A stretch of DNA of 57,552 bases, taken from the IMG/VR virus record IMGVR_UViG_3300023174_000194, positions 1 to 57,552 of that record. The stretch is one strand, 5' to 3'. Below are positions 6,220 to 56,769 of this stretch, one piece after another (the first letter of the stretch is position 1; the number at the start of each line of letters is the position of its first letter). The translations under genes were made by a program, and so were the position numbers. Below the pieces are notes generated by a model, which saw nothing but the letters and a program-made list of their open reading frames with translations, ran no database searches and was not told the DNA's origin. This DNA is from a virus. Lineage: Duplodnaviria > Caudoviricetes.

Positions 6220-6221
6220 GA

Positions 6222-7111: not shown

Positions 7112-7118
7112 ATTACTA

Positions 7119-33245: not shown

Positions 33246-33274
33246 TATTCATGACACCCCTATTCATTTTTTTA

Positions 33275-33586
33275 TTATTTTGATGTAAGCAATGCTGTAG
33301 GATCTGTAAGTTGAATACCAGATGCTGCATCGATTACTGCGTATACTGTTGGCAAGTCGATATTATCTTCTAGCGCCTCACGAGTAACTTCTTCCTTTAC
33401 ATACTGCTTAAATGCAATTTCTACACAATCTAAAAGAACATTCATTGACTCATCGTTGTTGTCTGATACGTCTGAAAGTTCTTGGAATCTCTTCATAAAA
33501 GGCTTAAGCAAAGAAATCTTTAGCGGTCTAACATCAATGGTTGTACCATCAATGAGAGTTATCTTCTTGGTTGTTGATTCTGACAT
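33275..33586 (-). CDS. Tail assembly chaperone, short G-like form
   Basis: SD GGAGG before ATG 33586; lies between major tail and tape measure; paralogous to the N-terminal half of 33639..34322. Confidence 0.75.
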   Translation of the reverse strand: MSESTTKKITLIDGTTIDVRPLKISLLKPFMKRFQELSDVSDNNDESMNVLLDCVEIAFKQYVKEEVTREALEDNIDLPTVYAVIDAASGIQLTDPTALLTSK

Positions 33587-33613
33587 TCTTTCCTCCAATA
33601 GGTTTGTTAATTA

Positions 33614-33622
33614 ATTATACCA
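33614..33622 (-). promoter_or_regulatory. Extended -10 TGGTATAAT
   Basis: Intergenic, upstream of the SD of the short chaperone gene. Confidence 0.65.
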
Positions 33623-33638
33623 TAACGATGGGCTTATT

Positions 33639-34322
33639 TTAATCTATTTTTTCGTAATCTAGGCCCATTCCAATACCAAATCCAGCACTTTCTGCATTCT
33701 GACCTTGAAGGGCAAGAATATCTTTTGCATCAGTTGCTTGTCCACGACTAAAAACTCTAGCCTTCATATCTTCCCAAGCATTACTTTTATTAGCATTTTT
33801 ATCTAAATCTACACCTTGCATTGCTGCCATAAATCTTTTTGTAGCATAGTCTTCATCTCTTTTTATATTTAAGATTGCAGTTATTTCTTGCATTGATAAA
33901 GATCTTTCTAGTTCATCAAAGTCTTTCCAAATACCCAGCAAAAAAACTTCCGATTCCAGTTTTGCCAAATCAAGGTCTTCCCATGTTGCTCCAGATTTAA
34001 CTGCTTGATCCTTTACTCCCTCGTCAGACTTTTCATCTACTTTGATTCCTGCAGCATAGTCTAGCAATCTATATATGTTTTTTAAATCTATTGCATCTTC
34101 AAAGTCTTCAATTGATTTTGAAATCTTTGGCATATATTGCTTCATACAGTTCATTCCACAAATGGCAAGAGCAGATATAGCCTCGATGTCACCTTTTGCT
34201 GATCGGACACCTTCAAAGTCATCCATAAACTTTCTTAGATATTTAATCTTAAGAGGAGATATTTCTAACTCAGTTCCGTCAATCAAATAAATAATTCCAG
34301 TATTGTATATTTCTGTAGCCAT
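33639..34322 (-). CDS. Tail assembly chaperone, long GT-like form in one frame
   Basis: N-half LIDGTELEISPLKI..IDLKNIY..AAGI plus a C-terminal extension LESEVFLLGIWKDFDELERSLS. ATG 34322 lies 6 nt after TGGTATACT. Confidence 0.75.
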   Translation of the reverse strand: MATEIYNTGIIYLIDGTELEISPLKIKYLRKFMDDFEGVRSAKGDIEAISALAICGMNCMKQYMPKISKSIEDFEDAIDLKNIYRLLDYAAGIKVDEKSDEGVKDQAVKSGATWEDLDLAKLESEVFLLGIWKDFDELERSLSMQEITAILNIKRDEDYATKRFMAAMQGVDLDKNANKSNAWEDMKARVFSRGQATDAKDILALQGQNAESAGFGIGMGLDYEKID

Positions 34323-34328
34323 TATATA

Positions 34329-34337
34329 AGTATACCA
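34329..34337 (-). promoter_or_regulatory. Extended -10 TGGTATACT, 6 nt before ATG (leaderless)
   Basis: TGGTATACT TATATA ATG. Confidence 0.65.
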
Positions 34338-34341
34338 AACA

Positions 34342-34373
34342 GAAAGGCCCAACCCCGAAGGATTGAGCCTCTC
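34342..34373 (-). terminator. Terminator hairpin with cUUCGg tetraloop after the major tail gene
   Basis: GAGAGGCTCAATCC-TTCG-GGGTTGGGCCTTTC followed by TGTTT. Confidence 0.8.
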
Positions 34374-34388
34374 ATATATTTAGTTGTA

Positions 34389-35003
34389 TTATGCGCTGAC
34401 TGTGCGGTCTACGATCTTACCGTATGACCCATTGTCGTTTGGAAGAAGACGGAATGATACTTCGAACATTGTCGCTTCGTCACGCTTTGCTGATACTGAT
34501 ACGCTCTCAATTGAAAGTGCACGGTATGCAACGTAGACACGCTCGATATTCTCGTTTGCGTCTCCAGTTCCTGGTCCAACTGCAATCAAGCCACGCTCTA
34601 CTGGCACATCGCCAATATCGCCTGCCGACATGTTTAGTGTTGGATTTGATGCAACTGTTGCTAGGTCTGAATCCTTACCTGCTAGTGCAAATAAAAGATT
34701 TTCTAGTGTTGATTCTGCGAATGTAGTCTTTAATGAAACCTGCATGCCTTGTTTAAATAACTTAGCAACGTCAAGAATCTGATCAACCTTTACTTCACCG
34801 AAATCTGGCTGGAATTGAATTTCCAAACCATTCATTGTATATCCAACGTTACGGAAGTCTGCATCACCTTGGAGAGTATCCTTGTATGATGTTCCTGCCA
34901 CGAACGCTGGTCGATCTGCGTCTGCAAGTGCGCCTGCTTCGTATGTGAAGAGTGCTGCTGCTCCAACGATAATATCGTTAGAACTACCACGTGTATATGC
35001 CAT
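34389..35003 (-). CDS. Major tail (tube) protein
   Basis: IIVGAA..VGYTMNG..VDQ..FAESTLENL..FRLLP siphovirus tube pattern; SD GAGGTG; followed by a terminator. Confidence 0.85.
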   Translation of the reverse strand: MAYTRGSSNDIIVGAAALFTYEAGALADADRPAFVAGTSYKDTLQGDADFRNVGYTMNGLEIQFQPDFGEVKVDQILDVAKLFKQGMQVSLKTTFAESTLENLLFALAGKDSDLATVASNPTLNMSAGDIGDVPVERGLIAVGPGTGDANENIERVYVAYRALSIESVSVSAKRDEATMFEVSFRLLPNDNGSYGKIVDRTVSA

Positions 35004-35055
35004 GTATTTCACCTCTTTTTTCTTTATAGATTAAAGGGCTTGTTTCCTCATGATA

Positions 35056-35064
35056 ATTATATCA
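35056..35064 (-). promoter_or_regulatory. Extended -10 TGATATAAT
   Basis: Intergenic, upstream of the major tail gene. Confidence 0.6.
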
Positions 35065-35071
35065 TCCCTTT

Positions 35072-35620
35072 TTAGGGGACTATAGAATCAATGACATCTT
35101 GCATCTGGTGATAGTCGTAGTCAATGATTATCTTGTTACCGCCAAAGGTTCGGGCTGTTCCAAAGTCAATAATGTCTCTGACTTCCTCTAGTTGGTATAT
35201 CTTAAAGTTATGGAAGTAGAACTTACAGGTCATGCCATTAAACGACTTGCCTTTTGCCCAGGCATTTATATCTTGGGCTGATTCGTCACCACGGTCCATG
35301 AGCCTTAAAACAGCCTCTTGTATCTGAATCATGCTCTCTGTAACACCATTCTGAGTTGCATAAAAGTAATATAAAAGTTGTTCACATTTGATGTGTGGGA
35401 AAGGAGATCTTCTCATTCTTATTAGTCGGTCATAGACGGCTACAACTCCTTGATAGGGCAGTTTTTCATCATTTATAACTACCCACTGCTCTGTTAAGTC
35501 ATCGATTGTGTTTGGTGCTGTTGGAAAAAATGGCATTGCCATTTTTGTGCCTCCATATATCTTTTCTTGAAGATACTTATTCACCCATAGCCCTGGTGTG
35601 TTTAGTGTTGATGTTGACAT
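35072..35620 (-). CDS. Probable tail terminator protein
   Basis: Immediately upstream of major tail; TAATG-coupled start at 35620. Confidence 0.55.
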   Translation of the reverse strand: MSTSTLNTPGLWVNKYLQEKIYGGTKMAMPFFPTAPNTIDDLTEQWVVINDEKLPYQGVVAVYDRLIRMRRSPFPHIKCEQLLYYFYATQNGVTESMIQIQEAVLRLMDRGDESAQDINAWAKGKSFNGMTCKFYFHNFKIYQLEEVRDIIDFGTARTFGGNKIIIDYDYHQMQDVIDSIVP

Positions 35621-36291
35621 TATGCTGTACCTCCATTTGCTACCCATCGAGATCCAACAGACATTCCCGTTGATCTACCACCCCTTTTACCAGCAGCCAA
35701 GTTTCTCTTGTAAACAGTTGGGTTAGAAAAATGTTCAGAAATTCCACTTGATCTTAAAAATGCTTGAGTAAAATATTTGCTAAAAAACATGTCCCAAACA
35801 TTTTCAAATTGTCCTTTTGTATTACCCCCAGGGTTTTCTACAAGTACTGGTTTCTTAGTATATACAACTTGCCCACCTACTTCAAACCTTAAGGTTTCTC
35901 CATGAACTGGCTGGATGATAACTGGTTGACCAAGTTCCATAATCTTTGCTTTATTCTCAAAAGGAACCTTTGATCCATTTTGAATAGTTTTTGATTGTTT
36001 AAACTCTGAAATAAAAGATAGGCCAAGGTTGCTAACAGCAAACTTAATATCAAATAACCTTGCTGAAGAACTTCCTGATTGACCCCATTCATAAACATGA
36101 TGCAATGTTTGATAACTTACTCTTGCGTTTGCATCAATAAACTGTGATGCTTCTTCTTCAACAAGTGGGCCAAGATTTCTAAAAAAGGCATGTTTTCCAA
36201 CTTGAACTCCATCAACAAATCCTAGAGAGTATTCCATAATGTTATCCATCTCTTTGCGAAACTGTTGGCTATCCATTCTTATTTTAATCAT
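35620..36291 (-). CDS. Probable neck / tail-completion protein
   Basis: Position in the head-tail joining block; LHHVYEW..KAKIMELG motif. Confidence 0.55.
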   Translation of the reverse strand: MIKIRMDSQQFRKEMDNIMEYSLGFVDGVQVGKHAFFRNLGPLVEEEASQFIDANARVSYQTLHHVYEWGQSGSSSARLFDIKFAVSNLGLSFISEFKQSKTIQNGSKVPFENKAKIMELGQPVIIQPVHGETLRFEVGGQVVYTKKPVLVENPGGNTKGQFENVWDMFFSKYFTQAFLRSSGISEHFSNPTVYKRNLAAGKRGGRSTGMSVGSRWVANGGTA

Positions 36292-40806: not shown

Positions 40807-42393
40807 TTATTGAGATGATCGCCCTTCGCCTTTTGGATTTCTTCCAGCAATAGTAGCAGAACCATCTGACTGATTGTTGGTTCTTTCGGCGTCTCTTTGA
40901 CGATCTGCTGGATTATTTGCAGCCTCTGGCTTTGCAACAACTGGATCATCGCCACCATCTCTTTGTGGCATTCCAAGAATAGTTCTTGCTTCATTAGGAA
41001 CCATAATTTGATTCTTAACATAGCGCTCAAGGATCTGAGACTGAGCAATTTCATCAGTAAGTGTAAGTTCGTTGAACTTGAAATCTAGAATATCTGTCTT
41101 TTCACGAATGATCTTATTGATCATCTTGCTTAACTTATCCTGTGCTGGTCTTGAAACCTGCTCCTTAAATGTTCTATCCTGTGCTAATGCTGCTGCAATG
41201 TTTGATGAATCTCCCCCGCCAAGTTTAGACAATGGAACCTGGTGAGCAACAAGAATGTCATCACGGTTCTGCTTACGATATTCTTTAAATGATCCTTCTT
41301 GAATTCCGTTTTCAATCGGTTCCATCTTGAACTCAACCTTATTGCCATCTGAATCTCCTGGCAATGGGATGTATAGAGTTCTATGATTTTGACCTTTAAG
41401 TCCTGTCTGCAAGAATCTAAACATCTTGTCCTCTGCCTCTGAAGATAACTTTGCACCCTTAAGAGTTACAACGTATCTAGGGACAGCCTTATTACTAAAG
41501 AAATCAATGTTGTATTGTGATGCAAGTGAGTCACCATACAAAGAGTTTATTGCTGCTAAGATATCAGGAACTCCGTAGAATGTGTTTAGTGGAGAGTATG
41601 ACTTAAAGTGAATAATCTCGTTTGGTCTTGGATCTGTTCCAAGAGGGTTTGGGTTCGTTGCTGCAAAATTACGGAAATAAATAACCTTGTTTCCAATAAC
41701 CTGAACAAAACCATCACGCAATCTTCTAATTCTAATTGTTGTTGATGGAATGTGACCGACATATCCAATTTCGCCCTTAATGGTTCTACCAACTTCTAGG
41801 TATGCGTTTCCAGTAGACTGAAGATCTGTAAAGATTTTTTCCATTGTAGATGTAAATGAATCTTCTGTGTTTAAAGATTCTAACCAATCTCTAACTTCAA
41901 TCTTTGCTCTTTCAATTCTTTTTCTTGCTCTGCCAACTGCATCGTTATCTGAAGATGACTCTAACTTTAACATTGTTCTTGCTGAAATCTCAAAGTCATA
42001 ACCAAGTCCAACAATGTTTTCTACCTTGGCATCAATGGCTGCGTGATTGGCAAATGATGTATCGTAATAACTTGCTAACTCATAAAGGTTCCATGGTGGT
42101 GTAATAACATCGAACAAACCATAACCATTTCTGTAGATAGTTCCTGGATTAATTTCTTTTGATCTTGCACCATTAATTCCAGTGCTTTCTGCTCTAGATG
42201 AGTCAATGTATGCTTGTGTTACTTCTGTCTTTGATATTCTGCTTGCTCTGCGTTTAAAGTTATTTTCTAGTCCCTCAAAAACTTTTAGATCATCCCACGA
42301 CTTATTGAATGGATCTTGCTTAATAAAAGTATCATCTGCTGGTGCAAGTTCATCGATTCTTGCTGGGATTCTATATTCTGAATTATCTGACAT
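40807..42393 (-). CDS. Portal protein
   Basis: TGNAYLEV, EIIHF..FYGVP, FFSNKAVP, AHQVP..LG, PNEARTILG. Confidence 0.92.
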   Translation of the reverse strand: MSDNSEYRIPARIDELAPADDTFIKQDPFNKSWDDLKVFEGLENNFKRRASRISKTEVTQAYIDSSRAESTGINGARSKEINPGTIYRNGYGLFDVITPPWNLYELASYYDTSFANHAAIDAKVENIVGLGYDFEISARTMLKLESSSDNDAVGRARKRIERAKIEVRDWLESLNTEDSFTSTMEKIFTDLQSTGNAYLEVGRTIKGEIGYVGHIPSTTIRIRRLRDGFVQVIGNKVIYFRNFAATNPNPLGTDPRPNEIIHFKSYSPLNTFYGVPDILAAINSLYGDSLASQYNIDFFSNKAVPRYVVTLKGAKLSSEAEDKMFRFLQTGLKGQNHRTLYIPLPGDSDGNKVEFKMEPIENGIQEGSFKEYRKQNRDDILVAHQVPLSKLGGGDSSNIAAALAQDRTFKEQVSRPAQDKLSKMINKIIREKTDILDFKFNELTLTDEIAQSQILERYVKNQIMVPNEARTILGMPQRDGGDDPVVAKPEAANNPADRQRDAERTNNQSDGSATIAGRNPKGEGRSSQ

Positions 42394-42815: not shown

Positions 42816-45800
42816 TTATACTGGTGTAGAGGTGCTTTGTTGCCATGATATTTCCTGATAAAAATTATATTCGTAGCCTTTTAGGGTAACCTTTTTGTCA
42901 GTATCAATGATTATCTTATTAGTTCCAGTATAACTCTTATAGATTATGTCAGGATCTACGCCATAGAAACTCTTGGTCGCAAGAACTAACATTCCTCCCC
43001 AGCGATATGCGGGTGTCCAAAAATCCCAATCTAGCGTCTCGGCGCCTGCATACTTAACTCTAAACCACTTTCTAAATGATGTCTGTTGAATCTCCTGGAG
43101 AGTTGTTGGCTGGTAATACGAAATCACATTAAATGTTAACGGTCCAGTTATTCTTATTGCTCCAGCAGTACTGTCAAAATTTAATATTCTTGAAAAAGAT
43201 ATTCCTAAGAATGCCCATTCCTTAACTGTAAGTACTGGATCTTTAACTACCTTGCCATTAAGATAGAACAAGATACCATTTTCATATTGTCCAGTTTTAG
43301 AGTTAATGGCATAAACTGTTCCTCTTTTTCCATCGGAACTATTTGCAACAATAAAGAATTTTAGATGTTGGTCTTTTGATTCTACCTCAAATATTGGTGT
43401 CGGGCTATATGGGAAAAAATCTTGGTCAAAACGAACCGCTGCTTGCATTGCTATAACACTATACTTATTTGAAAGACCTTGATTTATTGGAATTGAAAGT
43501 CCACGACTTACTGCTGAATTAAAATCACCACGAAGAGTTATTCCACTATTTCTAGTTAAGAACAAATAAGGACTACTCTTTTTATATATTGTAAATGGGT
43601 TCTTAGACTTGTAGTTGTAATAATAACCTGATTTTCTATAAGGATATATCTGTGTTCCAAATCTTGTTCCAACTGGATTTGGAGATGACTCATTAAATGC
43701 TTGTGAAGAATACTCTAAAGTTTTTATTTTAATGTCGTGAGTTAAGATTCCATCAATTTCAAAGTCTAACCTTGTTACCATTGCAATTTTTGAAGTGTCT
43801 TCTGCTGGTGGATAGATAACCATATTATCTACAACTTCATATTTTGTTCTTATCCAATCAGACTCTGGGGAGACAACTCCATCAGTTGATGCTGGTACAA
43901 ATTTTGTAAAATATGAATCTGAAGTATTTATACCAGAAGAAATATACTCAAAGTTAATGTAAGACTTTACGTATGAAGCAGATGTATCAAATTTGTAAGT
44001 TTTAGATACTTTATTTTTTAAATCTTCATAGTCGTTATATCCAGTAAAAAGTTCATTTCCTAATGCATCATAGTTTCTCTGTATAGGGAAAGAGTATTCT
44101 CCAGAAAGAGAAGGAATAGTTTCTTCGTTACTCTGTCCAGGATTGACTACAGTTGGAACACCATACTTCCAAGAAACTGGAGTTGCTGGAACTTCTAGAT
44201 ATCTAGACGGTGCTGGATAGTCAATGTTAAACTGAATAAAGTCTAAGTCATAATAATCTTCATTATTTATATCTTTTACATATTCTGACAAATAGGACAA
44301 AGGAAGATAATCTTTCCAGGATGATCTAACGGCAATATCAAAGTAATAGTTATTAAAATATTCTTTAACAATGAGAGTATAACTTGCGATATGATTTATC
44401 ATTCTATAAACTGGGTATCCGTTTGGGGCACCGCCATCTAGAAAGTATTGCCAAAAATTTGGATCAGTCCCAGTATATTCTCCAGCGTCAATGTCCAGAT
44501 TAGAATAATATAAGTCAAAGACATCTTCGTATTCTAAAAAGCAACCTTTTGCATTAAATAATGTTTTGATTAGTTCTAAGTTTGTTGCATTGCAAAGTCC
44601 AACTTTGTATATTTTTCCATGAAAACTTTTTGCAAAATCTTTTGTTCCACCTATATACAGTTTTAAAGAAGACCTATTTCCAAAAAATGACAACACGTTT
44701 CTTCCAAAGAAATCTGCAAACTTTTCAATATCTAATCCAACGGGAAATAATTCTCCAACCTGGACCTGTTGCATTGTGTACACAGTCTCAAGTTCTCCAT
44801 TGTAAAAAATATTGTATTTTATATTTGATCCATTCATAACTATTGAAAAATAGTTTGATGTATTTTCTTGCTCAATGTGGACAATGGTTTCGTCTAAAGA
44901 TGGAAGCACTGTTGGTTTTATAATAACGTAAAGGGCTTTTAAGTCTTCTTGTAATATATTAAAACCATCAAACTTTAAATAACCATTGTGTGACCAATAG
45001 TCTGCTGGCTTAAAAGTAAAAAAATTATCTGCTTCTGTTTGAAATGCAGAAGAAAATACAAAATTAGTTAGACCAACTGCCTCTACACCGTTTACAACAA
45101 GTTCTGGAACTTTGTAATCAGGAACAGATAGTTTGTTATTTTTAATAATTAGATTATTTAAAACACCTTGGTTCCATTTACCTAGGTCTGGATAAATATA
45201 ATTGTTTGTGTAGTCTGCATATTGATAATCAATAAACACAGAAGATCCACTATAGGCCGTATTTATATTTTCTGGAAAGTCTACTCCCTGACCATAAACA
45301 AATCTTCTTTTTGCAACCACGGGTGGAACTTTGTATGAATATATTGCTACCGCATCTATTTCTACTGGAGACACATCTTCATAAGAATAAAAACACAGCG
45401 TTTCATCGTCTTCTGATTCTGGAAAAATTAAATCGTATGCGTCAAATGTCATTGAGCAAACCTCATCGCCATTGAGCAGCAGGCTTGCTCCTTTTGATCC
45501 ATACACGATATCTATTAGCATAGGTTTTCCCCACTCACCTACATAGTGTGTTGCAATGTTGTTATTAATTTTTAATATAAGTGAGGTTCCGTCAACCCAA
45601 AGACCATCATCTGATGTATCCTTGCCAAATATTTTTCTTGGGACAATCGAGTCACTAGTAACCCTTAGCCACATTTCAAATGTATAGTCTTTATACTTTC
45701 CGCTTTCATGTAAAAAGCCTTTTGCTGGTATTACCAAACATGGATCTCCGCCATTATCAACAAGTTTTGTTATTCCACTTGCTCCGTAGACTAAAGGTAT

Positions 45801-46532
45801 TCCTGTATTCTTTGCAACAAGAGATCCGTTGCTTACAATGTAGTATCCGTAATCACTTGATAGTCCATAAGAGTCTGCTGCTACTCCATATTTACCTGGC
45901 AAAAGTGGTACGGGAACTTTAGTAACACCCAAAGATGTAGAGTTAAACTCTTCTGACCATTGTCCAAGGCTTAGACCATTTAAACTAAAGTTATATTCAT
46001 TTTCAAAATCATCTGTAAAGAAGTAGTTTATTTTAATAACAATTCTCATAGTTGTATTTTGATCTGGTACATCAAAGGTTTCTGATATAAATGCCCACTC
46101 CTTGCTTACTGGAGATAGAAAAGATTTTAGGTGCTGGATTATTTTTCCAGAAGAAGTGTCATAATATTCATAGCCAATCTGAATTCCAGAAATTGCTGCT
46201 GTGTCTGAGTAAAAATATGTTCCAATAGAAAATGTTTTTAGATCCTTATTCATGTCAGAAAAATTAATAATATCATCGGTTACGCATACGATTTCGCTGA
46301 ATGACTCATTGCCAATTCTAGCATTAAGAGTGTTTGTTATACTGGTTGGGAATGGAGAGGTTTTTAGAAATGCTCTTTCTACTAAAGCGCCATCTGTTTT
46401 CTGCCAGTTAGCAGAAGATCTTTGACTCTCTGTAATTAAAGAAAGATAGTCTGCTTTATCATCTAATGCCCACAAAGCAATTGGGTGTTCTGAAAACACC
46501 TTTTCTGCATATAGGTTTGATGAGGTAGACAT
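42816..46532 (-). CDS. Large virion protein with LamG/ConA-like beta-sandwich domains
   Basis: HPIALWALDD and YTFEMWLRV..LLLNG..IDAVAIY LamG patterns; 1238 aa; promoter-like TGGTAAAAT at 46542..46550. Confidence 0.65.
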   Translation of the reverse strand: MSTSSNLYAEKVFSEHPIALWALDDKADYLSLITESQRSSANWQKTDGALVERAFLKTSPFPTSITNTLNARIGNESFSEIVCVTDDIINFSDMNKDLKTFSIGTYFYSDTAAISGIQIGYEYYDTSSGKIIQHLKSFLSPVSKEWAFISETFDVPDQNTTMRIVIKINYFFTDDFENEYNFSLNGLSLGQWSEEFNSTSLGVTKVPVPLLPGKYGVAADSYGLSSDYGYYIVSNGSLVAKNTGIPLVYGASGITKLVDNGGDPCLVIPAKGFLHESGKYKDYTFEMWLRVTSDSIVPRKIFGKDTSDDGLWVDGTSLILKINNNIATHYVGEWGKPMLIDIVYGSKGASLLLNGDEVCSMTFDAYDLIFPESEDDETLCFYSYEDVSPVEIDAVAIYSYKVPPVVAKRRFVYGQGVDFPENINTAYSGSSVFIDYQYADYTNNYIYPDLGKWNQGVLNNLIIKNNKLSVPDYKVPELVVNGVEAVGLTNFVFSSAFQTEADNFFTFKPADYWSHNGYLKFDGFNILQEDLKALYVIIKPTVLPSLDETIVHIEQENTSNYFSIVMNGSNIKYNIFYNGELETVYTMQQVQVGELFPVGLDIEKFADFFGRNVLSFFGNRSSLKLYIGGTKDFAKSFHGKIYKVGLCNATNLELIKTLFNAKGCFLEYEDVFDLYYSNLDIDAGEYTGTDPNFWQYFLDGGAPNGYPVYRMINHIASYTLIVKEYFNNYYFDIAVRSSWKDYLPLSYLSEYVKDINNEDYYDLDFIQFNIDYPAPSRYLEVPATPVSWKYGVPTVVNPGQSNEETIPSLSGEYSFPIQRNYDALGNELFTGYNDYEDLKNKVSKTYKFDTSASYVKSYINFEYISSGINTSDSYFTKFVPASTDGVVSPESDWIRTKYEVVDNMVIYPPAEDTSKIAMVTRLDFEIDGILTHDIKIKTLEYSSQAFNESSPNPVGTRFGTQIYPYRKSGYYYNYKSKNPFTIYKKSSPYLFLTRNSGITLRGDFNSAVSRGLSIPINQGLSNKYSVIAMQAAVRFDQDFFPYSPTPIFEVESKDQHLKFFIVANSSDGKRGTVYAINSKTGQYENGILFYLNGKVVKDPVLTVKEWAFLGISFSRILNFDSTAGAIRITGPLTFNVISYYQPTTLQEIQQTSFRKWFRVKYAGAETLDWDFWTPAYRWGGMLVLATKSFYGVDPDIIYKSYTGTNKIIIDTDKKVTLKGYEYNFYQEISWQQSTSTPV

Positions 46533-48704: not shown

Positions 48705-49448
48705 TTACTTAAAGACTTTTCTGTGCCAGTGTTTTACTCTATATCCATTTTGAAACATTGATCTTACAACTCTGCGCTGTAGATTTGTTTTTTCTGGATC
48801 CCATTCCTTGTCTAATTCCATGGACCAATCTTCACGCTTAAATGGAAACACCTGTGCTAATGGAGTTCCTTGCTTTATAACTCCCTTGAAATTTTTCTTA
48901 ACAAAGAATGATAGATGTCCATCTGAAAAGAATTCATCGGTATCAATAATTGCTTCTACTGCTTGTAATGGTGATGGAGGTTGGTGCATAGGTTGCATAA
49001 ATAGTGTGCTATATCCTGGTGGAGTCTTTACCATCCATGTAGGGTGAATTCTAAAAACTTGATTAACATAAATCCCTGCATCCATTGGGAACCTTGATAT
49101 TTGCTCTGAAGAATGATGTGCAATTAATTCTTGTTGGAATCTTTGCATTTCCCCTGGCAATTGTACCTCAAATTTACCATCCGTTGTATCTACATAAATG
49201 TCTACTGGCACTTTTAATATATATCCTACAGACATGGCATCAAAAAATGCTTGACACTTTTTTACCGTTAACTTAAATGATCCATTTTGAGGTGTGTCTT
49301 CGTTTGGTCCAGAAATACTTGGCTGATCTTTATACCATTGTGGAACATTTTTTGTACCTGGTTCTGGCAATGGAAAAACATCAACTAGATGTGGATAGGC
49401 TTGAAGAAAAGTGATTTTGTTGGTATTATTAGTATTATGTTTTTTCAT
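48705..49448 (-). CDS. Uncharacterised enzyme-like protein (DUF6065 / dUTPase-fold-like)
   Basis: KKCQAFFDAM..GY, W..KTPPGYSTLF..P, IIDTD, GTPLAQVFPFKREDW. Family name from recall, unverified. ATG lies 6 nt after TGGTATACT. Confidence 0.55.
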   Translation of the reverse strand: MKKHNTNNTNKITFLQAYPHLVDVFPLPEPGTKNVPQWYKDQPSISGPNEDTPQNGSFKLTVKKCQAFFDAMSVGYILKVPVDIYVDTTDGKFEVQLPGEMQRFQQELIAHHSSEQISRFPMDAGIYVNQVFRIHPTWMVKTPPGYSTLFMQPMHQPPSPLQAVEAIIDTDEFFSDGHLSFFVKKNFKGVIKQGTPLAQVFPFKREDWSMELDKEWDPEKTNLQRRVVRSMFQNGYRVKHWHRKVFK

Positions 49449-49454
49449 AATACA

Positions 49455-49470
49455 AGTATACCACTAGTGG
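49455..49470 (-). promoter_or_regulatory. Extended -10 TGGTATACT (leaderless) overlapped by palindrome CCACTAGTGG
   Basis: CCACTAGTGGTATACT TGTATT ATG. Confidence 0.6.
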
Positions 49471-49486
49471 ATAATCCTTGCAATTC

Positions 49487-50896
49487 TTAGACCTTGGAGT
49501 TGTGGACAACCATGTTACCAGCGATGATTGTATCTACAGGGAATGCATTAAACTTAAATACATTTCTTGTTTCTGTGATATATTCTACGCTTGTTACAGG
49601 TGTTTCTGTCATGCCATTGTCTGTTGCTTCAAAGATAAAGTCTGTTGTCAATACCTTTTCTGCTTCAAGGAAGATGTGAGTGTTGTCTCTCTTAATGAGA
49701 ACCTTTTCTCCCTCAGTAAATCTCTTACCCTTGTCACCGTTAAAGAATAGTGTCTTCTCTTTAACTGATGGTTCGATGGCAATAATTTCTGAAGTAACTC
49801 TTTCAATTCCGTCTAGAATTTCTGGATATACTGTTGATGCTGATGGATCAACTGATTCGTCTAGTAGACCATTCCAGTTAATAGACCAGATCTTATCTCC
49901 GACAACAATATCTTTTGCTGCCTTAGATTCTACAGAATCTGTAACTCCAATAACTTGAATCTGTGTATCTTCATCAATACAGTATCTAAGAGGTACGAAT
50001 GAGTAAGATGGTGTAAACGCATATGGTGTAAATGAATATGGTGAAAATGCGTACGGAGTAAATGAATAAGGTGCAAATGAATATGGTACGAATGAGTACA
50101 CTGGTGTAAATGAATACGGTGCAAATGAGTATGGCACGAATGAATAAACTGGTGTGAATGAATACACTGGAGTAAACGCATATGGTGTAAACGCATAAGG
50201 TGTAAATGAGTAAACTGGTGTGAATGCATACGGAGTAAACGCATAAGGCGTAAATGAGTATGGTGTAAATGAGAATGTTGTAACTGATCCAGATGATGCT
50301 GAAACCACAGAGTTGCCGTTAGCATTAGTTGCATAGACTGTGTATGTTTGAGATGTTCCGCCTTCTTGGTTTACAGAAACAGATAATCCAGCAGTTGATC
50401 CACCCTTAGCATCTGAAGACGCCCAAGTATAAGAGGTAATTGCAGAACCACCATTATCTGGTGCTGTCCAAGAAACGCTGTCAGTGGTTGTACCTGCTAC
50501 GTTAGCACCAGCAGATGGAGTAGGTGATGATACAGATGGAGCACTAGGTGTTGCTGGAACTGTTGTAACAGTTACTGCAGCAGATGCTGAAGATGCTACA
50601 GAATTTCCTGCAGCATTTGATGCTACTACTGTGAATGTTGGGGTTGCATTTGATGCAATTCCAGTTACAATAATTGGAGAGGCTGAGCCTGTTCCTGTTT
50701 GTCCTGTACTTGCAGTTACTGTATAGGATGTAGCAGCAGGTGAAAGTGCTGGTAAGGAAAACGCTACAGATACAGCACCATTATTAAATGCTCTTCCTGT
50801 TCCTACGTTTGTTCCTGTAACACCTGTTGGTGCCATTGGCTCCAAGAAGTCATTTGACGCTTGTGCCTTTCTTCCGATCTTTTTACCTGCTGCCAT
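49487..50896 (-). CDS. Two FN3-like domains + aromatic/proline pentapeptide repeats + C-terminal Hint (intein-like) domain
   Basis: FN3: VSWTAPDNGGSAITSY..YTVYATNANG. Repeat tract. Hint: CIDEDTQI..DIVVGD..VTSVE..IIAGNMVVHN-SKV. Confidence 0.85.
   Translation of the reverse strand: MAAGKKIGRKAQASNDFLEPMAPTGVTGTNVGTGRAFNNGAVSVAFSLPALSPAATSYTVTASTGQTGTGSASPIIVTGIASNATPTFTVVASNAAGNSVASSASAAVTVTTVPATPSAPSVSSPTPSAGANVAGTTTDSVSWTAPDNGGSAITSYTWASSDAKGGSTAGLSVSVNQEGGTSQTYTVYATNANGNSVVSASSGSVTTFSFTPYSFTPYAFTPYAFTPVYSFTPYAFTPYAFTPVYSFTPVYSFVPYSFAPYSFTPVYSFVPYSFAPYSFTPYAFSPYSFTPYAFTPSYSFVPLRYCIDEDTQIQVIGVTDSVESKAAKDIVVGDKIWSINWNGLLDESVDPSASTVYPEILDGIERVTSEIIAIEPSVKEKTLFFNGDKGKRFTEGEKVLIKRDNTHIFLEAEKVLTTDFIFEATDNGMTETPVTSVEYITETRNVFKFNAFPVDTIIAGNMVVHNSKV
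49991..50275 (-). repeat. 18 tandem copies of (Y/F)-(S/A)-F-(T/V/A/S)-P with five single-residue spacers
   Basis: Counted from the translation: 285 nt = 95 aa; 15-nt units with synonymous variation. Confidence 0.95.
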
Positions 50897-50929: not shown

Positions 50930-53413
50930 TTACGCTGTCAAGTCGCCAAAGACAACCCATGTATTTGCTGCTCTCTTAAAGAGAGTTGCAGATGACCACT
51001 GTGTACGAAGTTTTAAACCTGGTGTTGAGTTAACTGTAACTGTTCCATCTACTGGGGCAATAGTTACTTGTCCTGCTCCAGTTTGAAGAATATCAATAGA
51101 TGTTCCTATTGGATACGCTACTGCTGTATTTGTTGGGATTGTAATTGTTGTACCAGATGCAGAAGAAACTTCAATTAATGAATCTCTTTCTGTAAGTGCT
51201 GAAAGTGTATAGGATGCTGTCTTTTGAACAATTGGTGTCCGTGATGCTACACCTTCTTTTGTCTGTGTACCGTCTGTAAATGCTACTCCTGCTGCTGCAA
51301 CTGTTACTGTTCCAGTAAATGTAGGTGAAGCAAGTGGAGCCTTTAGAGCAAGTGAGTTTGTTACTGTTGTTGAGAATGATGCGTCATTTCCAAGCGCAGT
51401 TGCTAACTCATTAAGAGTATCAAGTGCTGCTGGTGCTGACGCTACAAGTGCTGCAACCTCTCCACGAACATAGGCTGTTGTTGCAACCTGTGTAGTGTTA
51501 GTTGCTACTGCTGCTGTAGGTGCTGTTGGAACACCAGTAAGTGCTGGTGAGGCAAGCGGTGCGTATGTTGACGCTGCTGTTGCTGAAGCAAGTTTTAGAT
51601 CAAGTGCTGTTTGTGTAGCAGTTGAAACTGGCTTTGCACTATCTGCTGTATTATCAACATTTGCAAGTCCTACCATAGACTTTGTAATACCTGAGACAGT
51701 TCCTGTAAATGTAGGGCCTGCAAGTGGTGCGTATGTTGATGCTGCAGTTGCAGAAGCAAGTTTAAGATCAAGTGCTGTTTGTGTAGCAGTTGAAATTGGC
51801 TTTGCTGTGTCCGCAGTATTATCTACAGAATCCAAGCCAACCATTGACTTAGTAATTCCTGAAACTGTTCCTGTGAAGGTTGGTGATGCTAGTGGTGCTT
51901 TTGCAGCGAGAGAATTTGTAATTGTTGTTGAGAATGAAGCATCGTTACCAAGTGCTGATGCCAACTCATTAAGAGTGTCAAGCGCTGCTGGTGCTGATGC
52001 AACTAATGCTGATGCTGCATTTGATGCTGCTCGATCTGCGTATGCTGTAGTAGCAATTTTAGTGCTATTATCTGCAGCAGATGCTGTTGGAGCAGTTGGT
52101 GTACCAGTTAGTGCTGGTGAAGCAAGAGGTGCCTTGGCATCAAGTGCTGTTTGCTGTGCTGTAGAAACTGGCTTTGCTGAATCTGCAGTGTTATCAACTG
52201 ATCCTAAACCAACCATGCTCTTTGTAATACCTGATACAGTTCCTGTAAATGTTGGTGAAGCAATTGGTGCTTTAGTTCCAACTAAAGTAGCAAGAGTTGC
52301 TGCTGTTCCTTCATCTGCTGTTAAAGCAATTGCAATTTCGTTAAGAGTATCTAGTGTTGCAGGTGCTGATGCTACTACTGCTGCAACTGCTGTTGATGCT
52401 GCATTATCAGCATATGTCTTAGTTGCAAGAAGCGCTGTATCTGCAATACCATGAACATTTGTTGTTGCTGAATTGTGTGTTGAAAGTGCTGATCCTGCTG
52501 CAGTCGCTGCTGCAGAAGTTGCTGCAGACTGGGCATCTGAAGCCTTTCCATCAGCATAAACCTTAGTTGCTAGAAGTGCTGTGTCAGCAATTCCATGAAC
52601 ATTTGTTGTGTCTGCTTCGTGTGCTGCTACTGCTGTTGAAATTGCTGTTGTAGTTGCTGCAGTTGTAGCAAGAAGTGATGTGTCTGCAATACCATGAACA
52701 GCAGTAGTGTCATTGTTATGTGTTGTAATAGAAGCATCTGAGTAAGACTCTGAGGCTGTTGCTGCTGCTGCTATTGCTTGTGATTTACCAGTTGCAACCT
52801 TGTTTGTTGCATCTGTTGCTGCTGCTGCGATTGCTTCTGACTTGGCAGTTGCTACTGTTGTTGCAGTTGCAAGAACTGCTGTATCTGCAATACCATGAAC
52901 ATTTGTTGTATCTGAATTGTGTACTCCAATTTTTGTATCTGCTGTACCTGCTGCAGATGCAATTGCTGCGGATTGAGCAGTTGATGCTTCAAGAGTTGCT
53001 GCTGCTGCAACATCTGAAACTTCTGACTTAAGTGCTAGAAGTGCTGTATTAGCAATTCCATGAATATTTGTTGTGTCTATAGCATGTGTATTAATTGCTG
53101 CTGTAGCAAAAGCAGTTGATTCGTCTACCGATGTGTTGATTGATGCTTCAATTGCAGTACCAAAGTTGGCGTCATCGCCGATGGCTGCTGCTAGTTCATT
53201 AAGAGTGTTGAGTAGATCTGGGGCACCGTCTACAAGAGCAGCAATTTCGGCTGCAGAAGCATAATATGTCAGAGCAGACCAAGTGTTTACTCCATCACCA
53301 ATCTTAAACTTATTTGTTCCGCTTTCGAATCCAATTTCTCCTGCTGCTAGAATTGGATTTGCAGTAGTCCACTGCGTTGCAGTTCCTCTGCGCTGTTGCA
53401 TTCTTGTTGCCAT
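50930..53413 (-). CDS. Tail fibre protein with Mtd-N-like N-terminus and repetitive shaft
   Basis: MQQRRGT..W..NPILAAGEIGFE..KFKIGDG, 5x HGIA(D/N)T, 4x (D/N)TLNE(L/I)A, repeated APLASPTFTG, and C-terminal WVVFGDLTA domain. Confidence 0.8.
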   Translation of the reverse strand: MATRMQQRRGTATQWTTANPILAAGEIGFESGTNKFKIGDGVNTWSALTYYASAAEIAALVDGAPDLLNTLNELAAAIGDDANFGTAIEASINTSVDESTAFATAAINTHAIDTTNIHGIANTALLALKSEVSDVAAAATLEASTAQSAAIASAAGTADTKIGVHNSDTTNVHGIADTAVLATATTVATAKSEAIAAAATDATNKVATGKSQAIAAAATASESYSDASITTHNNDTTAVHGIADTSLLATTAATTTAISTAVAAHEADTTNVHGIADTALLATKVYADGKASDAQSAATSAAATAAGSALSTHNSATTNVHGIADTALLATKTYADNAASTAVAAVVASAPATLDTLNEIAIALTADEGTAATLATLVGTKAPIASPTFTGTVSGITKSMVGLGSVDNTADSAKPVSTAQQTALDAKAPLASPALTGTPTAPTASAADNSTKIATTAYADRAASNAASALVASAPAALDTLNELASALGNDASFSTTITNSLAAKAPLASPTFTGTVSGITKSMVGLDSVDNTADTAKPISTATQTALDLKLASATAASTYAPLAGPTFTGTVSGITKSMVGLANVDNTADSAKPVSTATQTALDLKLASATAASTYAPLASPALTGVPTAPTAAVATNTTQVATTAYVRGEVAALVASAPAALDTLNELATALGNDASFSTTVTNSLALKAPLASPTFTGTVTVAAAGVAFTDGTQTKEGVASRTPIVQKTASYTLSALTERDSLIEVSSASGTTITIPTNTAVAYPIGTSIDILQTGAGQVTIAPVDGTVTVNSTPGLKLRTQWSSATLFKRAANTWVVFGDLTA

Positions 53414-53455
53414 ATTTTATTTCTCCTTATGGGTGCTGCCCAATTACTTAACCTT

Positions 53456-53464
53456 ATTATAACA
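53456..53464 (-). promoter_or_regulatory. Extended -10 TGTTATAAT
   Basis: Intergenic, upstream of the SD AAGGAG of the fibre gene. Confidence 0.6.
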
Positions 53465-53472
53465 TCAATTTT

Positions 53473-53922
53473 TTAATTGAAATTATCTACTACACTACCG
53501 CCATCAAATACAACTGTCCAAACTGATGTGTCTGGGCCACCTGCATCTAAACCTACACCCAATGGGCTATTAAATGATCCGCCTTCATAAAACTGGGATA
53601 CTATGAAACCAGTTCCATCAATTGCAGTATCGTGAATATGCTGTGGAAGATTATTTGTATCATCAATAGTTGCCTGGGTATACCATGCTCCATTGTAATA
53701 GAAATTAACTCTGTTTGTTCCTGTGTCTAGCCATTGCGTTCCATTTGTTGGTGAAGAGGGAGCAGTACTGCCAACAGACATTGATACTGAGTCAACATAC
53801 TCCTTGGTTGCTGCATGAGTAGAAAGAGTTGGTGTTCCTACTGTTACTGCACTTCCGAATGTACCGCCGTTTGCTACGACTAAGCCATTCTTGACCTTGA
53901 AGTCTTTATTCTCTGTTGTCAT
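53473..53922 (-). CDS. Short fibre / adaptor protein
   Basis: KDFKVKNGLVV N-terminus, HAATKEYVD, APSSPTNGTQWLD, and C-terminal EGG/DAGG/DGG motifs. Confidence 0.65.
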   Translation of the reverse strand: MTTENKDFKVKNGLVVANGGTFGSAVTVGTPTLSTHAATKEYVDSVSMSVGSTAPSSPTNGTQWLDTGTNRVNFYYNGAWYTQATIDDTNNLPQHIHDTAIDGTGFIVSQFYEGGSFNSPLGVGLDAGGPDTSVWTVVFDGGSVVDNFN

Positions 53923-53952
53923 TTATTGCTCCCTTTTCCCCACAAATTTTTA

Positions 53953-56769
53953 TTACTTAATAAGTGTTCCAGATACTTTAACTGTTGAGTTGTTTGTTGG
54001 TGTAACTCGAACTCTAACATTTGCACCTGAAATATCTGCTGTGATTGTTCCTCTTGATCCATTAGTTCCAACAATTGCATATTCTGTAATTGCAATGTTG
54101 TCTGTTGAGTCTAGAGTTACTAGAATTTCTGACATTTCATTATCTGTTCCGTTGTCAATCTTAACAAGGAGTTTGGCTGAACGATAGTCTGCCTTTGCCC
54201 ACTGATAAGCAGTTCCAACAACGGTTGCTGTTCCTGAAGAAGATGCTGCAATTTGCTTGGCCTCAGAATTTACATTTATTTCTGTAAATGCTGTTGTTCC
54301 ATCAAGTACATCATCAAGTGCTGCTTGGGCTGTAGCCTCTGCTGCAGCCTTTGCTGCATTTGCCTTAGATGTTGCATCTGCTGAAGCAGTTGCTTCTGCA
54401 CCTGACTTAGCATTGTTAGCCTTAGTTGTGGCATCTGCTGCTGCGGTTGATATTGCATTTGTAACTGCTGTTGCTCTTAGTCCTGCCTCTGATGCTACCT
54501 TAGAAGTTGCATCTGCTGAAGCGGTTGCCTCTGCTGCAGCCTGTGCTGCGTTAGCCTTTGTAGTAGCGTCTGATGCTGCTGCTGTAGTTGCTGCAGTCTG
54601 TGCAGCATCTGCTGCTGCCTTTGCGTATGCAGTTGTTGCGACCTGAGTTGTATTTGTACCTGCTGCAGCAGTTGGTGCTGTAGGTGTACCAGTTAATGCT
54701 GGTGAAGCAAGTGGGGCTTTTGTTCCCAATGCAGTTGTAATAGTTGTTGTGTAATTAGCATCATCATTGATTGCTGCTGCCAATTCATTTAATGTATCAA
54801 GAAGTGCTGGTGCACCATCTACTAATGAATCTACTGCAGTTGAAATTGCTGTATTACGGTTTGTAACCTCTGTTGAGATTGCAGATGAAAGTGCTGATGC
54901 TGCAGTTGATTCTGCTGCAGTACGTGCAGCGTTAGCCTTTGAAGTAGCGTCTGCTGATGCAGTTGCAATTGCTGCAGTTACAGCAGTTGCTCTTGCAGTT
55001 GCTTCTGCTGCAACCTTGTCGGTTGCATCTGTTGCTGCAGTTGCTTCCGCACCTGACTTAGCATTATTTGCTTTTGTAGTAGCGTCTGCTGATGCTGTTG
55101 CTTCTGCTGCTGCTCGTGCAGCATTTGCTTTGCTTGTAGCATCTGCTGATGCTGTAGCCTCTGCTGCAGCCTTTGCAGCGTTTGCCTTTGAAGTAGCGTC
55201 TGCTGAAGCAGTTGCTTCTGCACCTGACTTAGCATTGTTAGCCTTAGTTGTGGCGTCTGTCGCTGCTGCTGCTACTGCATCTGAATATGCTGTGTTTGCT
55301 GATCCTGCTGCGTCATAGTTGACTGCAAGGCTATCTGCATATCCTCTTGCTGAAGTGTTTGCTGCTGCTGCTGCACCTGCTACATCGTATGCTGCTGAAG
55401 TTGCAGATAGTGCACGAGAGTTTGTGAAGTAAAGGTTGTTGCTGCCCTCTTCAATATCGTCTGTGTTAAGAAGATCAATTTGATCTCCAATTGTTCCACC
55501 TACAGCGTCAATTGCTCGCTGGTTTGTGAAGTAAAGGTTTGTACCTTCTGCTACATCAGATGTAGTTTGGTTGTCAACATAAGCCTGAGTTGCAAGAACA
55601 TCTGCACCCCACTTAACTGAAGAACCTGCTGCTGGAGTAAGAACGATATGAGAATCAGAATTGATTGTCATTGCTCCTGCGCCTGCGAAGTTTAATGTAT
55701 CTCCAATAGTCTTATTTGTTAATGTTTGTGTGTCTGTTGTTCCAACTACCGCACCAGTTACACCGTGTGCTGATGTGTCTGCTTCGTGAGTTGTAAGATT
55801 TCCTGCTACTGCATTAGCCTTAGATGTTGCGTCTGCTGATGCTGTAGCCTCTGCTGCAGCCTGTGCAGCGTTAGCCTTTGAGGTAGCGTCTGATGCAGCG
55901 TTTGATTCTGCTGTATCTACATAACCCTTAGTTGCTGCATGCAATGATGATGTTGGTGCACCTGAAAGTGTCAAAGCACCTGTCATTGTGTCGCCAGCCT
56001 TGGCAACCTTTTGTCCTACTGATGTAGCAAGATCTGTTGCATAGTTTGGATTATCTGAAATTGCTGCTGCTAATTCATTAAGTGTATCAAGAAGTGCTGG
56101 TGCTGAATCAACAAGTGCTGCAACTTCTGCATCTGTGTAAGCAATTGCTGCTGCTTCTGCTGCATCTGCTTTTGCAGTAGCGTCTGCAGATGCTGTGGCT
56201 TCTGCTGCTGCTCGTGCAGCATTTGCTTTGCTTGTTGCGTCTGCTGAGGCAGTTGCTTCTGCTGCAGTACGTGCAGCGTTAGCCTTTGAGGTAGCGTCTG
56301 CTGATGCTGTGGCTTCTGCTCCGCTCTTTGCATTGTTTGCCTTTGTAGTAGCATCTGTTGCTGCAGTTGAAATTGCAGCGTTAGCCTTGGATGTTGCATC
56401 TGATGCAGCGGTTGCTTCTGCTGCTGCTCGTGCAGCATTTGCTTTGCTTGTTGCATCTGCTGAGGCTGTAGCCTCTGCACCACTCTTGGCAGCATTTGCC
56501 TTTGTGGTTGCATCTGTTGCTGCTGCAGCCTGTGCTGCTGCTGCTGCGCCTGACGCATCAAATACGCCTGACTTAATATTTAGTTCACCAGCAACAACTT
56601 CCATCTGTGTTGATTCAACAGATGTTACGAGTGTTTGTCCACCAATTAAATCAATGATGTATTGGTCTGATGCTGTTTCTGAAAGAACTTGATTACCATT
56701 AACGGTTGCTGTTGTTCCTTCGACTACTAGGCCATTTTTGACCTTAAAGTTTTTATTTACTGTTGCCAT
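53953..56769 (-). CDS. Long Ala-rich coiled-coil tail fibre protein
   Basis: Many AEATASADATSKANAA repeats, 2x APALLDTLNELAAAI, 2x EG..NLYFTN.RA, and a C-terminal beta domain. Confidence 0.8.
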   Translation of the reverse strand: MATVNKNFKVKNGLVVEGTTATVNGNQVLSETASDQYIIDLIGGQTLVTSVESTQMEVVAGELNIKSGVFDASGAAAAAQAAAATDATTKANAAKSGAEATASADATSKANAARAAAEATAASDATSKANAAISTAATDATTKANNAKSGAEATASADATSKANAARTAAEATASADATSKANAARAAAEATASADATAKADAAEAAAIAYTDAEVAALVDSAPALLDTLNELAAAISDNPNYATDLATSVGQKVAKAGDTMTGALTLSGAPTSSLHAATKGYVDTAESNAASDATSKANAAQAAAEATASADATSKANAVAGNLTTHEADTSAHGVTGAVVGTTDTQTLTNKTIGDTLNFAGAGAMTINSDSHIVLTPAAGSSVKWGADVLATQAYVDNQTTSDVAEGTNLYFTNQRAIDAVGGTIGDQIDLLNTDDIEEGSNNLYFTNSRALSATSAAYDVAGAAAAANTSARGYADSLAVNYDAAGSANTAYSDAVAAAATDATTKANNAKSGAEATASADATSKANAAKAAAEATASADATSKANAARAAAEATASADATTKANNAKSGAEATAATDATDKVAAEATARATAVTAAIATASADATSKANAARTAAESTAASALSSAISTEVTNRNTAISTAVDSLVDGAPALLDTLNELAAAINDDANYTTTITTALGTKAPLASPALTGTPTAPTAAAGTNTTQVATTAYAKAAADAAQTAATTAAASDATTKANAAQAAAEATASADATSKVASEAGLRATAVTNAISTAAADATTKANNAKSGAEATASADATSKANAAKAAAEATAQAALDDVLDGTTAFTEINVNSEAKQIAASSSGTATVVGTAYQWAKADYRSAKLLVKIDNGTDNEMSEILVTLDSTDNIAITEYAIVGTNGSRGTITADISGANVRVRVTPTNNSTVKVSGTLIK
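54330..56530 (-). repeat. Degenerate coding repeats of about 19 aa / 57 nt (A[KR]xxAEATASADATSKAN[AN])
   Basis: Recurrent gctgatgc..gcagcgttagcctttg type units in three clusters; boundaries approximate. Confidence 0.85.

Follow-up and report, generated by a model that had tools for sequence, protein, structure and literature searches.

Introduction

To our knowledge, Hint domains found outside inteins and Hedgehog proteins (the BIL domains) still have no clear biological role. Here we describe a large and purely viral family in which the Hint domain occupies one fixed spot, the end of fibre-module proteins behind a Pro/aromatic repeat, as seen in the 469-aa product of the open reading frame (ORF) 49487..50896 on the minus strand of the IMG/VR virus record IMGVR_UViG_3300023174_000194. 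All coordinates count along the window, by which we mean the whole 57,552-nt stretch that was analysed, a linear viral contig of 57.5 kb with an estimated completeness of 53%. The autoprocessing domain itself is known, and what is new here is the architecture, a Hint domain behind a Pro/aromatic repeat at the end of a fibre-module protein; the observation is real, and the family is more widespread than the single window shows.

The closest described systems are the A-type BIL domains, which, in the account given in the general intein review PMC7765530, lie in variable regions of non-conserved proteins, end in His-Asn, lack a conserved +1 nucleophile and undergo autocleavage (Amitai, 2003; Dassa, 2004). 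The present family (the query protein and its homologues) shares with them the Hint fold, a Cys at domain position 1 (Cys1), the His-Asn end and the variable host proteins, and autocleavage would be expected over true splicing. Because Cys1 and His-Asn are combined with variable host proteins and with no conserved +1 nucleophile, the family matches the A-type BIL description; it shows the architectural features of that class and its best profile match in PDB is a BIL domain, which allows a provisional assignment by architecture. It differs from A-type BIL domains in being viral rather than bacterial, in lying at the extreme C-terminus, in always having a Pro/aromatic repeat ahead of it and in often carrying Glu or Gln in place of the block-B His.

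Other systems resemble the query in part. Hedgehog proteins (Hog; 1at0) also have a terminal Hint domain that processes the N-terminal part through a Cys thioester, whereas in the query only SKV stands behind Asn466, there is no sterol-recognition region and nothing indicates a lipid acceptor; moreover, the Tyr/Cys junction of the query differs from the junction motif of Hedgehog. Class 1 mini-inteins (Npu/Ssp DnaB, gp41-1) have the same fold, Cys1, terminal His-Asn and size (161 aa), and the query even shares their +1 Ser, which is, however, not conserved in its family (S in 10 of the 70 members of alignment A1, which holds the query and 69 homologues of the domain, and mostly K, G, A, L or R in the others). 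Unlike these mini-inteins, the query domain is not inserted in a host protein, has no real C-extein and lacks the His of the TxxH motif. In the Pretoxin-HINT group of polymorphic toxins (PF07591) the Hint domain likewise serves for release, in multidomain proteins that are secreted or surface-located, but it precedes the toxin that it releases, and no cargo lies behind the query domain. Finally, intramolecular chaperones of the Peptidase_S74 type are C-terminal domains of phage fibres and tailspikes that remove themselves by means of a Ser/Lys dyad. The logic is similar to that suggested here, whereas fold and chemistry are unrelated, and no such Pfam match was obtained on the query.

By sequence comparison, terminal Hint domains on phage fibre proteins reach beyond the query lineage, and one of them, in Phage NCTB, is known from a database label. 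A tblastn search of the phage collection with the domain at E<=1 gave weak matches to this phage and to the cultured Erwinia phage pEa_SNUABM_5. The NCTB protein, BN7874_136, is annotated as 'putative phage tail protein, contains intein domain' and matched with 27% identity and 99% query cover (E 2e-2); the Erwinia phage protein, putative tail fiber protein QQO90250.1, was aligned by hhalign over residues 328-468 of 477 (probability 98.6%, E 1e-15) with alignment A3, which holds 21 domain sequences from related loci. Like the query, both are proteins of the tail-fibre module that end in a homologous Hint domain, which stands at the extreme C-terminus behind a linker; they differ in belonging to jumbo myoviruses, in having collagen-like Gly-X-Y N-terminal parts, in keeping an intact TxxH and in lacking the aromatic/Pro pentapeptides. 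When a second domain type was used as the tblastn query against the phage collection, chance matches to helicase inteins were the only result. We found no study of terminal Hint domains on phage fibre proteins in the open full-text literature that was searched, and the accessible portions of five phage-genome papers (PMC3556154, PMC5259590, PMC5526547, PMC8790156 and PMC7760394) describe true inteins in terminase, helicase or ribonucleotide reductase (RNR) genes or are silent. In the genome of Phage NCTB, three neighbouring genes of the tail-fibre region (2960..8459 of that record) are annotated with intein domains. They encode a tail protein of 506 aa, an 'intein domain protein' of 153 aa with His-Asn and then three residues at its end, and a third product labelled 'large intein domain protein'.

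The C-terminal domain and the architecture of the protein

The ORF list and the translation give an open frame whose product can be divided as follows.

49487..50896, minus strand: whole gene, encoding an N-terminal peptide, two FN3-like domains, repeats, a Hint domain and a three-residue tail
50834..50896, minus strand: basic N-terminal peptide of about 21 aa, last residues NDFLEP (alignment A4)
50276..50833, minus strand: two FN3/Ig-like domains, roughly aa 22-112 and aa 113-207, with inferred boundaries
49991..50275, minus strand: 18 tandem [YF][SA]FxP units, aa 208-302, with occasional one-residue inserts (regular-expression count)
49979..49990, minus strand: junction L303-R304-Y305 / C306 with the predicted scissile bond Tyr305-Cys306 (translation, Cys1 of the family)
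49499..49981, minus strand: Hint domain, aa 306-466, from Cys1 to His-Asn (AlphaFold2, Foldseek, profile search, PF14890)
49490..49498, minus strand: tail S467-K468-V469, the equivalent of a C-extein, followed by the stop at 49487..49489 (translation)

According to profile searches and structure prediction, the C-terminal 164 aa, which begin with Cys306 and end VVHN-SKV-stop, are a true Hint domain; the Hint part itself comprises 161 residues and contains no homing endonuclease. With the 164 residues as query, HMMER returned 114 clusters at E<=1e-3 from 1.84 billion representatives, 46 of them at E<=1e-10, and the matched region lay nearly always at the extreme C-terminus, in proteins of 150-1757 residues. 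AlphaFold2 (AF2) run with A1 produced an all-beta model (pLDDT 96.1, pTM 0.90). For this model Foldseek found 48 matches in PDB at E<=1e-3, every one of them an intein, a Hedgehog HhC or a BIL domain (2lwy, 6y75), and the Hedgehog autoprocessing domain 1at0 is among the best structural matches (TM 0.70/0.79, rmsd 2.9). In agreement with this, the A3 profile finds the Clostridium BIL domain 2lwy as its best PDB match (E 1.3e-6), with mini-inteins next, and the Pfam model PF14890 (Intein_splicing) matches 35 of the 70 members of A1 (best 8e-8), PF07591 (PT-HINT) three, Hint two and Hint_2 one; the ESM Atlas leads for PT-HINT score 0.82. A phmmer search of PDB sequences with the single domain gave chance-level matches only (interferon-activable protein 202, E 0.028). 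A Hint domain had been proposed in a preliminary description made from the DNA letters, and fold and profile agree on it, the 164 aa modelling as a Hint fold.

The repeat tract was described equally well at the outset, since the regular-expression count gives exactly 18 aromatic/Pro units, followed by LRY and then Cys306. In the DNA itself, 50008..50287 is an array of period 15 according to Tandem Repeats Finder (17.9 copies, 71% matches), and the tract is therefore not a product of chance. A reading of the tract as a pentapeptide-repeat beta-helix was set aside, with no Pfam pentapeptide match at E<=0.1 and irregular one-residue inserts.

The N-terminal half is less sharply defined. Two FN3-like domains had been claimed, and this weaker detail stands in part: the match of the N-terminal 199 aa of the query to fn3 falls in the second domain (aa 133-172) and is sub-threshold (E 0.0023; 18.5 bits where 25 are required), whereas PF00041 matches 27 of the 70 A1 members (best 6e-14). 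The top ESM Atlas clusters for the FN3 part are fn3-bearing and 100% viral. Ahead of these domains, the peptide of about 21 aa is kept among the FN3-type relatives, with K5, G8, F17 and L18 nearly invariant and P20 invariant among the 54 sequences of alignment A4, and it is a candidate virion-docking peptide. Pfam and PHROGs gave no match on the whole 469-aa protein, and a three-copy complex prediction of the cassette (aa 196-469) scored 0.00 and carries no weight either way.

Conservation of the catalytic residues

The domain opens with Cys in 155, and with Ser in the other 9, of the 164 stored family members in which its start is aligned. At its far end, A1 shows the penultimate His in 69 of 70 members and the terminal Asn in 65 (H465 and N466 in the query). 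The residue at +1 is variable (K in 17, S in 10, G in 8, A in 6, L in 6, R in 5, with others less often; Ser in the query), and the residue at +2 is Lys in 48 of 56. The Ser/Thr of block B is retained in 70/70, and the His position of this block holds E in 25, Q in 23 and H in 22, with distant members of the family retaining the TxxH. At most eight residues follow the domain in 143 of the 164 proteins. On the other side of the domain, the 12 residues upstream are always rich in Phe and Pro (F 21%, P 20%), position -4 is Pro in 84/164, and a basic residue stands within -1 to -3 of Cys1 in 68/164.

A portable C-terminal cassette

Of 8000 candidates scored with the whole protein as query, 918 were homologues at E<=1e-3. 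With the exception of a few that NCBI also lists, these come from metagenome or sequencing-run assemblies and are named 'hypothetical protein' at most; some sit on contigs of 98-120 kb. IMG/VR holds 210 relatives, 80 loci among which were examined, and in 80/80 of these the gene lies in the fibre block, as had been stated for the window. With the full-length protein as query, tblastn gave nothing at 1e-5 in 50,697 phage records. In cellular genome contigs, a search with the single protein gave 39 loci in which the match is confined to the N-terminal FN3 part and extends to residue 249 at most, a faint indication that the cassette may be absent from cellular genomes, the search patterns being specific to close relatives.

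Across the 80 syntenic genes the FN3 N-terminal part is conserved and the C-terminal end varies: 41 end in a Hint domain, 22 in a Cys-rich tail and 14 without a cap, and three are cut by the contig end. Of the 41 Hint-bearing genes, 27 encode Cys1 together with HN, 6 Cys1 without HN and 7-8 a Ser1 with HD, YD or FD and a longer tail. The Cys-rich tails that replace the Hint domain have at least three Cys (for example CWQAC...CGC types) and occur in loci L006, L019, L024, L027, L028, L034 and others. The uncapped genes either stop right behind the repeats or have another short tail, and some of them end in PPFR or FGFR, like the residues at -1 to -3 ahead of Cys1 in the Hint-bearing forms; these natural variants suggest, as far as sequence can tell, that the processed form would be functional. 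The type of the repeat unit is lineage-specific (YSFTP, FGFSP/FSVFGF or PFFP), and the number of units ranges from 5 to 49. Five loci (L008, L009, L015, L022, L055; two genes each) form a sub-family with Ser1, an intact block-B His and His-Asp for His-Asn; this form, with a conserved tail of about 45 residues that ends NPPA, occurs twice in the same genome, on the FN3 protein and on a fibre protein of ~940 aa.

The same Hint family also terminates PASTA proteins, fibres of 700-980 residues that carry a W[LV]V.GD motif, and still larger proteins. PASTA domains, which bind peptidoglycan, occur in 10 of the 70 A1 members. The motif of the fused fibres, in which fibre, repeats and Hint domain follow one another in one protein, resembles that of the fibre encoded in the window. 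Outside the syntenic slot, the domain stands always behind Pro/aromatic or Pro/Thr low-complexity sequence.

In each of five near-complete relatives, which measure 98-113 kb and include two with terminal repeats, there are 2-3 Hint ORFs. The Hint pairs within a genome are 51-84% identical, as against 20-39% between genomes, G001, a close relative of the window, being the exception; this argues that repeat and Hint domain move and homogenise as one cassette. No second Hint ORF was found within the window, and the second copy of G001, which lies about 7 kb further upstream, would in the window fall past the end of the record. On these sequence grounds, the Pro/aromatic repeat with its terminal Hint domain is a portable C-terminal cassette. 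The family thereby comes with natural controls, in the shape of uncapped forms, Cys-rich caps, degenerate His-Asn ends and two to three co-evolving copies per genome, and offers a tractable setting in which to ask whether a terminal Hint domain serves as a maturation cap, keeps a hydrophobic tail soluble or anchors the protein covalently.

Proposed processing and alternative readings

Our preferred reading, to which we give a probability of roughly 0.6, is that the Hint domain is a removable BIL-like autoprocessing cap, cut at Tyr305/Cys306, on a hydrophobic tail of variable length. The gene product is probably an accessory adhesin of the fibre module of an uncultured long-tailed phage; the two FN3/Ig-like domains are likely to be its binding part, and the 18 aromatic/Pro pentapeptides are proposed to form a stalk or linker of variable length. 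After folding, Cys306 would attack the carbonyl of Tyr305 in an N-to-S acyl shift, and water or a cellular thiol would resolve the resulting thioester, so that the Hint domain of about 18 kDa would be released and the repeat tract would become the mature C-terminus. It is also conceivable that Asn466 and Ser467 let the protein splice SKV back on, in which case the product would be practically identical. The cap could allow a very hydrophobic, aggregation-prone tail to be produced and assembled, by a logic analogous to that by which other phage fibres shed their C-terminal chaperone domains through self-cleavage. The phage lineage attaches the cassette to FN3, PASTA and long fibre proteins and keeps it homogenised within each genome. 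The preliminary description had offered two fates for the aromatic/Pro tract: that of a new C-terminus is plausible, with relatives that stop where the Hint domain would begin, whereas its ligation to a partner is matched by no co-varying partner gene. With cleavage predicted behind Tyr/Phe/Val-type residues, the compact 161-residue domain might also become a tool for protein engineering.

Several observations weigh against this preferred reading. The chief caveat on the predicted activity, as judged from the sequence, is the loss of the block-B His: block B of the query reads T-E-G-E, with Glu where the TxxH of inteins and Hedgehog has His, and competence for the N-S acyl shift is accordingly not assured. 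Pfam places no Hint model on the query, either on the whole protein or on its C-terminal 165 aa. All of the cleavage chemistry is deduced from conserved residues, and association with the virion from gene position and domain fusions. The fibre genes lie upstream of the portal gene, apart from the tape-measure/minor-tail module, and the products of this block, the Hint protein among them, could sit on the head or neck of the virion instead of its tail tip. In addition, about a third of the Hint-bearing syntenic genes (~14/41) lack the His-Asn end, and the Cys-rich tails of 22 relatives would fit a structural or binding tip role as well.

The last of these points lead to a reading in which the Hint domain is catalytically silent and stays in place as a folded tip or cap, serving for instance in binding or oligomerisation. 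The degenerate HN ends, the change of the block-B His to Glu in the query and to Glu or Gln in 48 of 70 relatives, and the alternation of the domain with Cys-rich knots that resemble structural tips would all suit it, yet we regard it as unlikely: Cys or Ser at position 1 in 164/164, together with the near-universal His and Asn, is hard to explain without catalysis when identity between genomes is only 20-39%, and the uncapped natural variants show that a tip is dispensable. Conservation of the nucleophile can also be read as pointing to a thioester-mediated ligation, in which the Hint domain would pass the repeat-tailed adhesin to a nucleophile and yield a covalently anchored protein, the acceptor being a lipid, a Lys or other amine of a second virion protein, or a thiol or amine of the host envelope; this would be chemistry of the Hedgehog or sortase kind, with no separate enzyme needed. 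Such chemistry is established for Hint domains, Hedgehog passing its product to cholesterol, and BIL domains of the Tetrahymena BUBL locus are among the structural matches (6y75); Cys1 persists in the six loci that have lost the C-terminal Asn, a pattern that points to selection for the N-terminal thioester; and both the conserved +2 Lys and the PASTA domains on sister cassette proteins would be in keeping with it. Ligation nevertheless appears quite unlikely, since the query has no acceptor-recognition region comparable to the sterol-recognition region of Hedgehog (0-8 residues stand behind the domain in 143/164), no partner gene co-varies with the Hint domain, and uncapped (14/80) or Cys-rich (22/80) forms fill the same slot, so that ligation is not essential to the role of the protein. 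It is just as doubtful that repeat and Hint domain make up a self-contained covalent-anchoring device, with the virion or assembling particle bearing a C-terminal thioester on a sticky aromatic/proline tail until a specific nucleophile of another virion protein or of the host envelope (peptidoglycan amine, lipid or thiol) resolved it and so attached the adhesin covalently; if they did, the homogenisation of cassettes within a genome would reflect a shared acceptor.

The neighbouring gene and the proposed modification system

A third alternative to the removable cap concerns the genes around it. The preliminary description had seen a new multi-gene system in which the aromatic/Pro tract would be modified, by hydroxylation or in the manner of ribosomally synthesised and post-translationally modified peptides (RiPPs), by the 247-aa protein encoded next to the Hint gene or by a distant 2OG-Fe(II) oxygenase, alongside Hint processing. 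The elements concerned are the following.

48705..49448, minus strand: 247-aa neighbour with a dUTPase-like fold, DUF6065-related (phrog_7084 at 5.4e-43), judged to lie outside the Hint feature
49455..49483, minus strand: promoter-like hexamers TTGCAA-17-TATACT in the 38-nt gap, 9/12 consensus positions
6527..7126, minus strand: ORF described earlier as a putative 2OG-Fe(II) oxygenase, an identity not supported by library matches

Structure prediction indicates that the 247-aa protein has a jelly-roll fold like that of dUTPases and dCTP deaminases, with the sequence-level link not established. The AF2 model, made with alignment A2 (23 relatives from related loci), has a pLDDT of 78.7; Foldseek gave weak matches to it (8e-3 to 7e-2), nearly all dUTPases or dCTP deaminases, and in a wide VIA-align search the top 22 rows were all dUTPase/dCTP deaminase (Z 8.8-4.5), with the next row at Z 3.5. 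At the sequence level, PF00692 matches 1 of the 24 family members (E 0.049) and DUF6065 matches 7 of the 24 (best 1e-5), and the family profile found no match in PDB. Homologues occur in 50 phage records, 49 of haloarchaeal viruses (HF1, HF2, HRTV and others; 27-31% identity) and one of a cyanophage; in HF2 the homologue (4881..5765) lies between an RNR gene and baseplate/fibre genes.

It is very improbable that this protein or the oxygenase candidate modifies the tract. One argument for such a system is proximity: the gap between the 247-aa gene and the repeat gene is 38 nt in the window and 31-58 nt in its closest relatives (L002-L005, L067, L079), and is otherwise 0.7-3 kb and once 7 kb. 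In the 73 usable loci, moreover, the 247-aa gene accompanies every FFP (38/38) and YSFTP (7/7) repeat gene, 45/45 in all, as against 9/28 for the FG type, counts that come from closely related lineages and are not independent. The same loci, with the same limit on the counts, show no tie to the Hint domain, the gene being present in 25 and absent in 13 of the 38 Hint-bearing loci, and present in 29 and absent in 6 of the 35 Hint-less ones. Its dUTPase-like fold is no known protein-modifying fold, its halovirus and cyanophage homologues belong to a collection in which the whole Hint protein has no match at 1e-5, and in HF2 it adjoins an RNR gene. The type and number of the repeat units (5-49) vary freely, as is expected of a linker and not of core peptides, nothing RiPP-like was found and no dedicated maturase co-occurs.

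The oxygenase candidate fares no better. The ORF 6527..7126 has no significant oxygenase match and no Pfam match at E<=1e-3; WelO5 is sub-threshold (E 0.012, residues 2-48), phrog_2954, labelled ferrochelatase, matches at 1.3e-6, and the ORF lies 43 kb from the Hint gene in the replication module. A promoter of its own had also been ascribed to the 247-aa gene. Promoter-like sites number 6 in the region as against 9.4 +/- 3.1 in shuffled sequences, and the hexamer pair is therefore without statistical weight. We conclude that the 247-aa gene is an independent gene and not a partner of the Hint domain. The two-gene 'system' is thus corrected to a new architecture of a known autoprocessing domain beside an independent gene whose product has a dUTPase-like fold and is shared with haloarchaeal viruses.

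Genomic context

The gene that precedes the Hint gene had been described as a fibre gene with a WVVFGDL C-terminus, which its matches to tail-fibre PHROGs and Mtd_N and its WVVFGDLTA end bear out; it is syntenic in the related loci.

50930..53413, minus strand: upstream fibre of 827 aa with an Mtd_N N-terminus and the C-terminus NTWVVFGDLTA (several PHROG tail-fibre families); genomic context rather than a demonstrated partner

The order conserved across loci is fibre (938 aa), 149-aa gene, fibre (827 aa), Hint gene, a variable stretch of 0-3 kb, 247-aa gene, class II RNR, 1238-aa protein, 136-aa protein and portal. The two fibre genes (50930..56769, minus strand) and the Hint gene are thus grouped with the RNR and the 1238-aa protein, and the tail module occupies 17092..36291 on the same strand. 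Elsewhere the window encodes a portal, a prohead protease and a major capsid protein, minor tail proteins, and DnaB, primase, Pol III alpha and RecA. The tape measure protein (23745..33245, minus strand; phrog_10030, E 3.6e-98) has 3166 residues, which implies an unusually long tail. The gene of the 1238-aa protein (42816..46532, minus strand) lies just upstream of the portal gene in relatives, where the protein is 34-90% identical; it has no Pfam match and matches phrog_11584 weakly (E 1.5e-7).

There are also weak pointers to an actinobacterial host. The portal protein (40807..42393, minus strand) shares 48% identity with those of Streptomyces phages of ~130 kb, the FN3 part has cellular relatives (L096-L125) of which many belong to metagenome-assembled genomes of Actinomycetota, chiefly Acidimicrobiaceae, and the PASTA domains on sister cassette proteins point in the same direction.

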